From: Patescibacteria group bacterium | GTDB lineage: Bacteria > Patescibacteriota > Minisyncoccia > Portnoybacterales > UBA2143 | DNA: 64,000 bases | Direction of reading: 5' to 3' | Assembly (NCBI GenBank): GCA_018830295.1 | Contig: JAHJSM010000002.1 | Span: 115,131 to 179,130 of the forward strand | In this document: one piece after another, positions 57,173 to 60,521 of the stretch | Layout: each line of letters opens with the position of its first letter | Position numbering within the stretch: the stretch's first letter is position 1 | Program-made: the position numbers and the translations under genes | Notes under the pieces: model-generated | What the model saw: only the letters and a program-made list of their open reading frames with translations | What the model was told of the DNA's origin: nothing | The model's database searches: none

Positions 57173-57510
57173 AAAAGTTTTAGTTATATTTTTTTATTAT
57201 ATTTAAAGTTCCTCCCCCTCATATTACCCCAACCAAAAAAACAAATCAAACGAAAACCCGCTTGGGGGCGGGGTTATAACTCTTACCATTCGCAGACTCT
57301 TTTGTCGTTGTCTCCGTCTAAATGATGAATGTCATCGCCGGTTTTCTCTTAACGAGGTTCGACCTACGAGCGCGACCTTAAGAAATGTCGCTACTCTTAA
57401 TGTCAAACCTCTTTGCTTACCATCCTATCCCTCTCATTTTACAAACCTAACTGTCGGATATGTATCTGAACCTATACACCAAAAAACTGGCTGTTTCAAC
57501 GGAAAAATCT

Positions 57511-57541
57511 GGGGACAGTCCCCGCAGCAGGGACTGTCCCC
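57511..57541. repeat. GC-rich palindromic element GGGGACAGTCCCC-GCAGCA-GGGACTGTCCCC
   Basis: family member; about 65 bp including flanks duplicated at 59582-59646. Confidence 0.8.
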
Positions 57542-57709
57542 AGATTAAAATCAATAGCCACTTGACAAGGTTTCTATATTTGATATTCTATTATTAGGGC
57601 TGGCAATAATACCTTTTGAAGCGCTCGGGTGTTCTCTCCGCAGATGCGGAGATCATAAAGCTCGAGAGTCCGTTTCAAAAGACGCCGCTCTACAAAAGAT
57701 TCCGATAAT

Positions 57710-58412
57710 TTATCGGGATTTTTTGTTTGCCCAATAATCCTTAAAAAGTTCGTTAGACGCGATGATGCTGTTTCTAAGCATTGCGAAAAAATGCTCGCCG
57801 TTTTTTCTTTCATTGTGGTATCTAAAAAGAGCCCCGCAAATCCAATCTGCTATTTGTATATTAGGACTAGCGGAAGAATTTAACGCTTCAATTTGAATAA
57901 CCGCTTTTGCTGGCAATTTTGGCAACAAATCTAATTTTGTAATTTCATTAAATTTTGTTTGAGAAATTTTTTTCAGATGCCTTTCGTCTCGGAATACTCT
58001 GAATTCTAAGTCAGTAGTAGGCAAAAGAAGATGAAGGGTTTGAACAATAACTTCGGCATATAAATAGCCGCTATCCAAACTTTTCTTTTTTCGATATTCC
58101 AAGGGGATGTTGGACTTATTAAAAAAGGCGTAAAATACCCTGATGTCTTGTTCAGTAAAATATTCAAGCGTTTTTACGGAGGTTTTCATCTAATCCTGTG
58201 TCTGAAAACTTAACTTCTGTTTTATAGCGAAGTTTCTTTGGAAATTTTGTATGTTGCCATTTGCGAAAGGCCTTGGATGTTCTTTTGTGATTGTTTGTGA
58301 TAAATCCGCCCACGACAAAATTACGCTCTTTGTTCCCTGTAAAATTACCTGATTCATCAAGAAAGATAAACATATTCCCCCTAATTTTACCCCAACCAAC
58401 AAGACAAATCAA
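57710..58412 (-). pseudogene. DUF3800 family gene split by a frameshift (N-terminal piece 58164-58373, C-terminal piece 57710-58189)
   Basis: N-terminal FIFLDESGNF and C-terminal QIADWICGAL in separate overlapping frames; combined length about 229 aa. Confidence 0.5.
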
Positions 58413-58462
58413 TCAAAAAAACCCGCTTGGGGGGCGGGGTTAACCGAGTTTCCTAATTATAA

Positions 58463-59524
58463 TTAATCTTTCTTTTTCTTGTTTTCTAAAATCTTTTTTA
58501 CTTCTTTGTCAAAATCGGAAATATATTTTTTGTCCTGTATTCTTTCAAATTTTTTAAATTCTTTTTCCGCTAAGGCAATTGCCACCTCGTGCGATATATT
58601 CCCCGTATTTTGAAGAATGTCTTTTTCATTAAATTTTAAAAACGCATTCAATTTTTTTACCCAATCTTTCATATACATTACCCGCCCGGCTTCCGCCTGC
58701 ATTTCCGCAAAACTTAAATACATATCAACAATCCTATTTAACTTATCAATCTCGTTTTCCGCCAAATAATTTTTCGCAACTATAACATCGGTTTCTCTAA
58801 TTTTCCCTTTTGGCGCGTATTTCCATGTCGTCAGTCCCATATTGGACTTTTTACTGTTCACTCTCTTATGAATTATTTCCGCGGCTGTTTTGCCGGTTAT
58901 GGCAAAATGAAGCTTATTTTGCACTGTGGCAAAAAATTGTTTAGTGATATTATTAGTCGGCGAATAATCGGCGCTGCATTGCGCGTATATGTCAGTTATT
59001 TTTTGATATAATCTTCTTTCACTTGAACGAATATTCCGTATTCTTGCCAACTGTTCTTCAAAATAGTCCTGCCCAAAAATATTGCTTGGATTTTTAAGCC
59101 GTTCATCGTCCATAGTAAAACCTTTGATGATATACTCTTTGAGCCGTTCGGTCGCCCAGACGCGAAAATGTGTTGCTTGAGCGCTATTAACCCGATAACC
59201 AACAGAGATAATAGCGTCAAGGTTATAAAATTTTGTAGATTGTATTTGCGTTTTTCCTTTAATGGCGCCGTGTTTAGTGGTATGTTCCAAAATGGAACTA
59301 ACCGAATTTTCTTGCAATTCTCCGCTTTGGAAAATATTTTTAAGATGCTTGGTAATAGCTGGTCTTTGTACCCCAAACAAAACAGCTATCTTATCCTGCG
59401 TTAACCAAATATTTTCATCGCGCAAAAATATCTCTACTTTTACTTTCCCATTCGGAGCGGTATAAAGTAAAAACTCGGTAAAACTATTATTAATTGGCGC
59501 AATTTGTTTTTGTTTATTCACCAT
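58463..59524 (-). CDS. RhuM-family protein
   Basis: N-terminal LLYTAPNGKVKVEIFLRDENIWLTQDKIAVLFGVQRPAITKHLKNIFQSGEL matches the RhuM pattern. Confidence 0.65.
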   Translation of the reverse strand: MVNKQKQIAPINNSFTEFLLYTAPNGKVKVEIFLRDENIWLTQDKIAVLFGVQRPAITKHLKNIFQSGELQENSVSSILEHTTKHGAIKGKTQIQSTKFYNLDAIISVGYRVNSAQATHFRVWATERLKEYIIKGFTMDDERLKNPSNIFGQDYFEEQLARIRNIRSSERRLYQKITDIYAQCSADYSPTNNITKQFFATVQNKLHFAITGKTAAEIIHKRVNSKKSNMGLTTWKYAPKGKIRETDVIVAKNYLAENEIDKLNRIVDMYLSFAEMQAEAGRVMYMKDWVKKLNAFLKFNEKDILQNTGNISHEVAIALAEKEFKKFERIQDKKYISDFDKEVKKILENKKKKD

Positions 59525-59611
59525 AATTATTATTCTCTCCCTCTCAACCCATCCCCCTCATATTACCCCGACCCCCGAGACAAATCAATCAAAAAACTGG
59601 CTGTTTCAACG

Positions 59612-59642
59612 GAAAAATTTGGGGACAGTCCCCGCAGCAGGG
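59612..59642. repeat. GC-rich palindromic element (duplicate of 57511-57541)
   Basis: family member. Confidence 0.8.
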
Positions 59643-59662
59643 ACTGTCCCCAAATTAAGATA

Positions 59663-60382
59663 TTAAAGCAATTTTTTCTCCGAGAAACTAAAAACTTTAG
59701 TTTTGGCGATGATGATGTGGTCAATGACTTCTATCCCCATGATTTTGCCGGCTTCAACGATGCGTTTGGTGGTTGTGAGGTCGTCTTGGGACGGTTCGGG
59801 GTCACCGGAGGGGTGGTTGTGGACTAAGACAATCGCGGCAGCGTTTTTTTGGAGGGCGTATTGAAAAATTTCTCGGGGGTGGACTAAATTCGCGTTGAGT
59901 GTACCGACAAACATTGGCTTTTTGAAAATCATTTCGTTGCGGGCGTTGAGGTAAATAACCATCAGATGTTCTCTTGTTTTGTCGCGCATATAGGAAACTT
60001 GGGCGATAATGTCTTTAGGCGTTTTGATAATTGGCGCGGTCTCGTCTCCGACGCCGATGGCGCGTTTGGTTAATTCCACGGCCGCCAAAATGACGCATGC
60101 TTTGGCTTGGCTAATCCCCTTGATTTCGGTCAGTTTCTCGTATGTTAAATTGAGGAATTTTTTGCGGGGGTATTTGGATAAAACCAACTTTGCTAATTCA
60201 AGAACATTTTTGCCTTGATAGCCGGTTCCTAAAAGAATCGCCAAAAGTTCGGCGTCTTTCAAATTTTGCGGTCCCCTATCTTTCATTTTCTCCCGCGGCC
60301 GGTCAACCGACGGAATATCGCTGATTTTAAATTTTTTCATGATTATATTTTTAATTATATCTTTTTGAACGAAGCGGGTCAA
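59663..60382 (-). CDS. radC: RadC-like JAB/JAMM domain protein
   Basis: HNHPSGDPEPSQDDLTTTKRI JAMM motif; N-terminal HhH-like ELLAILLGTG. Confidence 0.8.
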   Translation of the reverse strand: MTRFVQKDIIKNIIMKKFKISDIPSVDRPREKMKDRGPQNLKDAELLAILLGTGYQGKNVLELAKLVLSKYPRKKFLNLTYEKLTEIKGISQAKACVILAAVELTKRAIGVGDETAPIIKTPKDIIAQVSYMRDKTREHLMVIYLNARNEMIFKKPMFVGTLNANLVHPREIFQYALQKNAAAIVLVHNHPSGDPEPSQDDLTTTKRIVEAGKIMGIEVIDHIIIAKTKVFSFSEKKLL

Positions 60383-60521
60383 TCAAAAAACTGGCGCGGT
60401 TTTTTCCACGCCAGTTTGTTATATTATCCCTTTTTCTTGATTTTTACTCAAATTTTTTGTATCATAAATATTGTATTGGATGTTCTTGTTCTTTTTACTA
60501 ATTTCAGAAAGGAGGGCTGAA

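Follow-up and report, generated by a model that had tools for sequence, protein, structure and literature searches.

Examination of a 64,000-nucleotide stretch of DNA from a Patescibacteria group bacterium (GenBank contig JAHJSM010000002.1, positions 115,131 to 179,130; hereafter the window, to whose first letter positions refer unless another contig is named) reveals a short intergenic module that is repeated ahead of single accessory genes in a variable island. Judging from its sequence, this module probably terminates one transcription unit and initiates the following one, and probably serves as a site at which genes are swapped by homologous recombination. An earlier note on this DNA had described it as a promoter cassette shared by restriction-modification (RM), DUF3800, RhuM and radC genes. 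The repeat is real, with the corrections given below, and both its reading as a promoter and terminator and the swapping of genes at the modules are well supported computationally; the interpretation of its G-rich part as a Shine-Dalgarno site and the notion of self-contained travelling units are not supported.

A repeated intergenic module in the accessory island

Three homologous copies of the module are found on the minus strand at 57272-57213, 58438-58376 and 59596-59552 (copies 1 to 3). Together with a degenerate fourth copy, they are confined to the interval 57.2-59.6 kb, which is part of an accessory island, and every gene from about 50 to 60.4 kb of the window is carried by this strand. 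The module comprises a stem-loop and a -35/-10 pair within about 60 nucleotides (nt). In copy 1 (intergenic sequence AACCCCGCCCCCAAGCGGGTTTTCGTTTGATTTGTTTTTTTGGTTGGGGTAATATGAGGGGGA), a hairpin of the form CCCGC-CCCCAA-GCGGG (57272-57257) and the run TTTT (57256-57253) are followed by the -35 element TTGATT (57249-57244), a 17-bp spacer, the -10 element TAATAT (57226-57221) and GAGGGGGA (57220-57213), the copy standing 48 nt before the ATG (57172) of an RM gene (57172-54803, minus strand) that codes for a 789-amino acid (aa) protein with HSDR_N, N6_Mtase and Eco57I domains. Copy 2 (AACCCCGCCCCCCAAGCGGGTTTTTTTGATTGATTTGTCTTGTTGGTTGGGGTAAAATTAGGGGGA) combines a hairpin (58438-58422) and a run of seven Ts (58421-58415) with TTGATT (58412-58407), TAAAAT (58389-58384) and TAGGGGGA (58383-58376), and the ATG (58373) of a DUF3800 fragment is located 10 nt past its -10 element. 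Copy 3 (CAGCCAGTTTTTTGATTGATTTGTCTCGGGGGTCGGGGTAATATGAGGGGGA) has a run of six Ts (59596-59591), TTGATT (59588-59583), TAATAT (59565-59560) and GAGGGGGA (59559-59552); the ATG of the RhuM gene (59524-58463, minus strand) is 35 nt past the -10, with its own GAGGGAGAG upstream.

The earlier note had given the order of parts as hairpin, T-run, TTGATT, 17-bp spacer, -10 and G-rich stretch. The promoter parts are indeed present in all three copies, but the 5-bp GC hairpin is restricted to copies 1 and 2 and is missing from copy 3 over the span assigned to it. Similarly, copy 2 does face the ATG of the gene 58164-58373 that it had been said to serve, but this open reading frame (ORF) codes for no more than the N-terminal part of DUF3800, the gene being disrupted.

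Across the window, the degenerate 17-mer GGGGTAAWATNAGGGGG is matched perfectly at exactly three sites, all on the minus strand (57214-57230, 58377-58393 and 59553-59569), whereas shuffled sequences give 0.94 matches with three mismatches permitted and perfect matches are expected at a rate of about zero. A repeat search groups the copies as a family (D12), in which identity to the reference is 81% and 72% over 53 nt, and BLAST aligns copies 1 and 2 at 87% identity over 67 nt and copies 2 and 3 at 87% over 45 nt. Given these word and shuffle statistics and the identities in both searches, the three-copy repeat is real and not a product of chance. Of the claim of near-identical segments of about 80 bp, the presence of a homologous repeat before three genes is borne out, but this repeat is shorter and less similar, at 45-67 nt and 72-87% identity.

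Related copies and the genes that they precede

To sequences outside the window we applied the pattern TTGATT-N13-GGGGTAANATNAGGGG, scanning species-representative genomes, viral contigs and Joint Genome Institute (JGI) metagenomes; sequences with L numbers below are related contigs from metagenomes and assemblies that were compared with the window. The JGI metagenomes yielded nine matches in eight groundwater contigs (samples Ga0180732, Ga0180007, Ga0180009 and Ga0180015), all of them homologous across the whole module, hairpin included. Profile and BLAST searches of the eight contigs added more diverged copies. Further copies, which the earlier note had envisaged, thus number at least 15 in these related contigs, but a profile search of the window found none beyond the three, and its core parts were empty.

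The genes downstream of the outside copies code for two different NYN-domain proteins, two small LPD3-like proteins, a type I HsdM and alleles of DUF3800. By way of a conserved leader, outside copies also precede two different genes of the HSDR_N, N6_Mtase and Eco57I (type IIG-like) kind. All genes served by modules are of a defence type or accessory. Among 185,579 species-representative genomes the family was absent, the one match, in a Thermoguttaceae metagenome-assembled genome, being alike only at the bases required by the pattern and hence attributable to chance. The scan of viral contigs likewise gave one match, which on inspection was due to chance, so that there is no evidence of a phage origin in this set. 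On these comparisons, the module family is confined to a narrow lineage of Patescibacteria, where it would serve at least eight unrelated accessory gene families. In a different Parcubacteria contig (L021/L022), a motif of its own, CCGCACTGTTATAAA, occurs twice, 40-160 nt upstream of a RhuM homologue, which suggests that other lineages may use repeated promoter modules of their own.

Evidence for a probable junction between terminator and promoter

An alignment of 17 distinct copies was used for constraint analysis. Its invariant columns are limited to three Ts of the T-run, the TTGA of the -35 element, G42 just past it and positions A2, A5 and T6 of the -10 element, whose position 1 is conserved in at least 90% of the copies. 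The two hexamers are 17 bp apart in 17/17 copies, never with a gap, and three variants (radC, L008_1041 and L009_12500) keep this spacing although their spacer sequences (CGCTATGGTATTCGGGG, CGCTTCGTTCAAAAAGA) have no relation to TGTCTTGTTGGTTGGGG. The invariant columns and the fixed spacing point to the constraint expected of a sigma-70 promoter and not to a neutrally drifting repeat. Moreover, all copies with enough downstream sequence point towards a conserved leader or an ORF at a distance of 9-115 nt.

These features also bear on the possibility that the copies are by-products of a recent segmental duplication, or a selfish miniature repeat similar to REP elements or to miniature inverted-repeat transposable elements (MITEs), with no role in expression. 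The limitation of the copies to one lineage and a few metagenomes would be in keeping with such an origin, as would the several other intergenic repeat families of the window. However, the genes on the flanks share no relationship that would reveal a segmental duplication; the module has neither terminal inverted repeats nor target duplications; its orientation and distance to the start codon are fixed; and its conservation is highest at the promoter-critical bases. We accordingly regard this explanation as unlikely. A MITE-type reading as such was rejected because no inverted repeats bound the module and all copies face the downstream gene.

A terminator scan found 23 sites in the region against 8.8 expected, and it calls GC stem-loops followed by T-runs at 58438-58422 and 57272-57257, that is, in copies 2 and 1, as well as at 59656-59616 and 60417-60388, two further hairpins described below. 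An internal control for promoter recognition is available in the DUF3800-V RNA of the same island, which begins 6 nt past a TTGACA-16-TATTCT site; the tRNA-Ser is unusable as a promoter control, as its closest -10-like hexamer ends 2-3 nt before the mature 5' end. The host genome encodes an RpoD-like sigma factor (62046-62930), which fits promoters of the sigma-70 type, and a G-rich spacer end and an AG-rich discriminator are among the features described for promoters of the Terrabacteria (PMC12641261).

Some observations weigh against the proposed function. A generic promoter scan gave 55 sites against 48 expected, and thus no enrichment, so that it lacks statistical power in this AT-rich region; it flags copy 2 (9/12 consensus positions) and the radC site (11/12, the top score) and misses copies 1 and 3. 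The 5-bp hairpin would be a weak terminator and is degraded in the copies L003_179 and L006_2526. Nine of the outside copies were found by a pattern that fixes TTGATT, GGGG, TAA.AT and AGGGG, which introduces some ascertainment bias. Promoter and terminator activity are deduced here from sequence, as is homologous recombination, the probable mechanism of exchange. Finally, the spacer positions TGT and GGTTGGGG are more conserved than a promoter strictly requires, which could reflect either recent common descent or a bound factor.

The last point is also the starting point for a different explanation, namely that TGT..GGTTGGGG..AGGGGGA is a shared operator, bound by a regulator or an alternative sigma factor that co-activates the genes of the island, with the hexamers being secondary. 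Conservation of the spacer ends and the discriminator beyond the contact needs of sigma-70, and the defence-type or accessory nature of all genes served, would be consistent with this. Yet the module shows no dyad symmetry, the variants with unrelated spacers retain only the hexamers and their spacing, and no regulator gene is consistently linked in the loci examined. The likelihood of an operator as the primary function hence seems low to us, and such a function would in any case be compatible with a promoter.

It is highly improbable that the module is a structured cis-regulatory RNA of the 5' untranslated region, in which the G-rich stretch would pair with the C-rich loop and control translation or termination. 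While the minimum-free-energy folds of copies 1 and 2 do pair the CCCC and GGGG tracts, their folding energies are ordinary (z = 0.08 for copy 1 and 0.35 for copy 2), and the strong z-scores of copies 3 and 4 are due to their terminator hairpins. Loops are altered (L006_1550) or the hairpin is absent (copy 3) with no compensating change, the C- and G-tracts show no covariation, Rfam gives no match at E <= 1, and transcription is predicted to start downstream of most of the element.

We propose instead that the module acts as a composite intergenic unit of about 60-65 bp, read on the minus strand. Its GC hairpin and T-run would constitute an intrinsic terminator for the upstream gene, a role that in copy 3 would be taken by a larger hairpin. 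The end of the T-run would then lead into a sigma-70-type promoter, made up of TTGATT, a 17-bp spacer that is G-rich near the -10, and TAAAAT or TAATAT, with GAGGGGGA after it as an AG-rich discriminator. Transcription is predicted to start about 7-8 nt past the -10 element. The messages for DUF3800 and the NYN proteins would thereby have leaders of 2-4 nt and be functionally leaderless, those of RhuM, HsdM and the RM operon would have leaders of 25-48 nt, and some copies would drive a conserved hairpin leader.

The G-rich stretch and predicted leaderless start codons

The G-rich stretch that the earlier note had called Shine-Dalgarno-like directly adjoins the -10 element, and the start codons follow at short distances from the latter (10 nt for DUF3800, 9 nt for NYN and 13 nt for radC). 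Given these distances, transcripts from this promoter would not contain the G-run, which argues against a Shine-Dalgarno role for it; GAGGGGGA is probably a discriminator or an initial transcribed region. Canonical GGAGG sites do precede other genes of the window, for example at 60523 and 39112.

The window contains an additional family of comparable architecture, module 1 (D1), which reads CGCCAAGGGGGCGG-TTTTTT-GGTATAAT-GAGGGT-ATG and is represented by eight copies between 32 and 48.6 kb. It shares with the module described here the succession of GC hairpin, T-run, -10 element, G-rich discriminator and start codon, but is unrelated to it in sequence and is distinguished by an extended -10 (TGn), the lack of a recognisable -35 and an ATG just 6-7 nt past the -10. 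In five of the eight copies, this ATG, 6-7 nt past TATAAT, opens an ORF of 69-321 aa (-10 sites at 32140, 36038, 37928, 41357 and 42380, minus strand). Such a distance is classical for leaderless starts and implies leaderless mRNAs for many genes of the island.

Five copies of the module described here end in ATGGG at +8 after the -10 element, with a stop codon 2-5 codons further on (MG*, MGW*, MGLRG*, MGLVK*). One of these is in the window (59552-59544) and the others are in the regions of L004 1946, L007 309, L009 12481 and L010 7932. They may represent mini-ORFs or what is left of a leaderless start.

Gene exchange at the modules

Comparison of related strains makes gene swapping at the modules visible, and this observation is well supported. 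The contig L004 is a variant of the same locus and matches the window at 96% identity over a segment that begins at the radC promoter, takes in radC, the large hairpin and copy 3, and ends at GAGGGGGATGGG. Past this point, L004 has an unrelated gene for a 161-aa LPD3-like protein where the window has RhuM. According to the alignment of the junction, identity (99%) returns at TTAACCCCGCC, the first bases of the copy 2 hairpin. In L008 and L009, the slot of RhuM is occupied by a gene for a NUDIX-like protein of 158 aa, and the slot upstream of copy 2 is therefore seen with three different genes, those for RhuM, the LPD3-like and the NUDIX-like proteins. Behind the next module, L004 and L007 have HsdM, and the window has the leader element, a further module and the gene for the 789-aa RM protein; this difference between L004/L007 and the window has its left breakpoint inside a 19-bp hairpin (57506-57546). 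With the exception of one gene segment of 747 bp, the BLAST matches of L007 (11.4 kb) to the window are at most 200 bp long, and those compared with the ORF map are intergenic. Short-read assemblies also end at or near repeats of the island: L018 about 40 nt past radC, and L001 at position 57700 of the window, beside the terminator of the DUF3800-V RNA.

Neither side of RhuM bears a module in the four closest contexts from other Patescibacteria (81-84% identity). The module is thus not cargo but a resident junction specific to this lineage, which contradicts the earlier proposal that defence genes move as self-contained promoter-gene-terminator units.

The breakpoints raise the question of a site-specific recombination site, of the integron attC or Xer type, at which a dedicated recombinase would move the genes. 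As in integrons, single accessory genes are arrayed in one orientation, with short related repeats between them and a content that varies between strains; the breakpoints coincide with the repeats, one of them within a hairpin; and such an option was left open for phage motifs by the authors who described the promoter-early stem-loops (PeSLs) considered below. The attC sites of integrons are imperfect inverted repeats of 55-140 bp with R''/L''-L'/R' core sites. The module, in contrast, has only a 5-bp stem with a loop of 6-7 nt, is spanned by no longer inverted repeat or attC-like long imperfect palindrome and has no terminal repeats, and each gene has its own -35/-10 pair and terminator as against the common Pc promoter of integrons. 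No integron integrase accompanies the array: the sole tyrosine recombinase of the window (5543-6487), with a best match to XerD/XerC, is located 50 kb from the modules and scores 99.8 bits against an integron-integrase cutoff of 265. The breakpoints furthermore fall at differing points of the module and the cassettes are chimeric at several positions, a pattern that homologous exchange would give. Site-specific recombination is thus very unlikely in our assessment, and an integron was rejected on account of the XerC/D-like nature of the recombinase.

With homologous recombination as the preferred mechanism, the modules would offer patches of homology, given that the same sequence recurs between many unrelated accessory genes. 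Recombination at these patches of 45-67 bp of near-identity could replace, delete or insert single genes among co-occurring strains, and a swapped gene would remain insulated and expressed.

The predicted radC promoter, the degenerate copy and associated hairpins

The radC gene (60340-59663, minus strand) is preceded by a predicted terminator-promoter of its own at 60417-60354 on the same strand, consisting of a hairpin (60417-60388), a run of six Ts, TTGACC (60382-60377), a spacer of 17 nt and TATAAT (60359-60354), with the ATG at 60340. The earlier note had regarded it as a variant of the cassette. It has only GCCAGTTTTTTGATTGA (17 nt) in common with copy 3, and the short word TTTTTTGATTGA is not significant by itself, with seven matches against 4.45 expected. 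The link to the family comes from chimeric copies in the related contigs L008 and L009, which join a radC-type 5' half to a 3' half of the family and read TTGACCCGCT...GGGGTAAWATNAGGGGGA; TTGACCCGCT is present both in them and at the radC site. The radC promoter is thereby a relative of the cassette by mosaicism, though not a copy of it.

The degenerate fourth copy, which had escaped the first reading of the sequence, is situated at about 57464-57428 on the minus strand. It has a -10 element TAAAAT (57441-57436) followed by GAGAGGGA (57435-57428), and its -35 has decayed to TACATA. An alternative promoter, TTGAAA (57499-57494) and TATAGG (57476-57471) with 17 nt between them, overlaps it. This copy precedes a conserved long leader hairpin, GAGGTTTGAC...GTCGAACCTC (57354-57411, minus strand), which is predicted to be driven by the cassette; in L009 and L010 the leader hairpin separates a cassette promoter from the ATG of type IIG-like RM genes. 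A search of Rfam at E <= 1 over 57100-60600 gave no match on the cassette or the leader hairpin, returning only the DUF3800-V RNA and a spurious match to the IsrM terminator.

Other copies of the leader hairpin are found on the plus strand of the window at 38820-38881 and 48592-48652, and in the contigs at L009 4170-4230, 12395-12495 and 12719-12821 and L010 2637-2701 and 7848-7946. Across eight copies, the hairpin (GAGGTTTGAC..GAGTAGCGAC-ATTTCTTAAG-GTCGCGCTC..GTCGAACCTC) displays compensatory changes in 10 of 21 predicted pairs, and in one copy its apical part is swapped for a different stem-loop. At 38.8 and 48.6 kb, it has A- and T-runs on its flanks, similar to a bidirectional terminator.

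The larger hairpin associated with copy 3 is a 19-bp stem, AATTTGGGGACAGTCCC...GGGACTGTCCCCAAATT, followed by TTTTT (59656-59616, minus strand); it stands 20 nt upstream of this copy as a predicted terminator after radC, and belongs to a separate repeat family (D13/D6). This GGGGACAGTCCC hairpin has a twin at 57546-57506 on the minus strand, the two D13 members being 96% identical over 72 nt. Long GC hairpins of the GGGGACAGTCCCC and GGGGGCTGCCCCC types are spread over core and island parts of the window alike (3257-3301, 24868-24907, 42403-42447, 47308-47347, 50776-50820, 57505-57549, 59615-59659 and 63232-63276), and probably are general terminators or REP-like elements. One such hairpin contains a breakpoint in two strain variants, L004/L007 and L008.

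Gene content of the window

The window encodes FtsW, GltX, PyrG, DnaG and GroEL, in addition to the XerC/D-like recombinase and the RpoD-like sigma factor. Given these housekeeping proteins and RpoD, it is part of a bacterial chromosome and not a phage genome. A protein 100% identical to RhuM is annotated at NCBI under Patescibacteria group bacterium and is found on a contig of up to 744,622 bp, and assembly GCA_018899715.1 and several groundwater metagenomes contain a protein identical to the GroEL of the window.

With PADLOC models, RhuM is assigned to the candidate defence family PDC-S05 and the 789-aa protein to type IIG and type I methyltransferase families. The gene for the latter heads a tight operon that includes an HsdS-like gene, and a DUF4238 gene is also present in the island on the minus strand. 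The DUF3800 gene is split into two ORFs (58373-58164 and 58189-57710, minus strand) in the window, and an independent Logan assembly shows the same split. It is broken in every variant seen, with 58062-58289 missing in L008/L009 and about 57728-58328 missing in L004/L007, while the DUF3800-V RNA is still 97-98% identical. This RNA (Rfam RF02964, 66.9 bits) is encoded on the plus strand at 57595-57692, convergent with the DUF3800 gene, with a promoter at 57562-57589 and a terminator at 57692-57726.

A second Rfam family, the LOOT RNA (RF03000, 70.9 bits), is encoded inside the same variable island at 47906-48037 on the minus strand and is preceded, at a distance of about 17 nt, by a possible extended -10, TGCTAATCT. 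A C-rich direct repeat of 93 nt (D2; AAACCCCCTCTAAATCTTTTACTCCCCCTTATCCTCCCTAAACC...) lies between island genes at 38907-38999, 42448-42540, 48678-48770 and 50090-50182, at 75-96% identity, and is also matched in L007 and L009.

Comparison with known systems and implications

A search of the literature found no report of an equivalent module in bacterial chromosomes or in Patescibacteria, which is not proof of its absence from the literature. The Correia elements of Neisseria, REP/BIME and ERIC elements either are palindromic or carry terminal inverted repeats; they can insert in both orientations and are dispersed genome-wide. Compared by description only, they resemble the module as short intergenic repeats able to supply promoters or terminators; the module differs in having no terminal repeats, in keeping one orientation to the downstream gene and in being limited to the island end of the window.

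The closest described system, by our comparison, is the PeSLs of T4-like phages, which combine a sigma-70-like promoter with a stem-loop containing G and C runs (Arbiol et al. 2010, PMC2839356; Comeau et al. 2014, PMC4122927). PeSLs are repeated between ORFans in hyperplastic regions, where recombination results in replacements, deletions and mini-circles, and both their promoter and terminator activity and the formation of mini-circles have been demonstrated (PMC2839356, PMC4122927). The modules correspond to them in architecture, distribution and breakpoints: both have a sigma-70-type promoter, an A/T-rich stretch before the -35 and a stem-loop with runs of G and C; both recur in a hypervariable region, where they separate small genes that are not essential; and in both, indels and replacements between close relatives start and stop at the motifs, sometimes in the stem-loop. 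They differ in host, a Patescibacteria chromosome as against a phage, and there is no evident sequence relationship, no formal comparison having been made. The stem-loop of the module is always upstream of the -35, an arrangement seen in only one of the five PeSL subclasses. Further, a PeSL ends in a Shine-Dalgarno sequence and a start codon, whereas the ATG after a module can be a mere 9-10 nt past the -10 and thus leaderless; and the promoter and terminator activity demonstrated for PeSLs is predicted for the module from its sequence.

Tentatively, and with somewhat less than even confidence, we propose that these lineage-specific junctions of a terminator and a leaderless or near-leaderless promoter function, in a PeSL-like manner, both as expression sockets and as docks for homology. 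In this way, they might permit one-by-one shuffling of defence and accessory genes among co-existing strains of reduced-genome Patescibacteria, without dedicated mobile-element machinery.

The modules account for the breaks of short-read assemblies in these islands and provide anchors with which the variable gene pool could be recovered from metagenomes. They also supply concrete candidate sequences for promoters and terminators in Patescibacteria, along with evidence of leaderless expression in this group, whose transcription signals have been little explored. If the modules work as proposed, single defence genes could be exchanged between strains without an integrase, transposase or integron visible in the island, and each incoming gene would be insulated and expressed, a principle for which the hyperplastic regions of T4-like phages are so far the only documented case.

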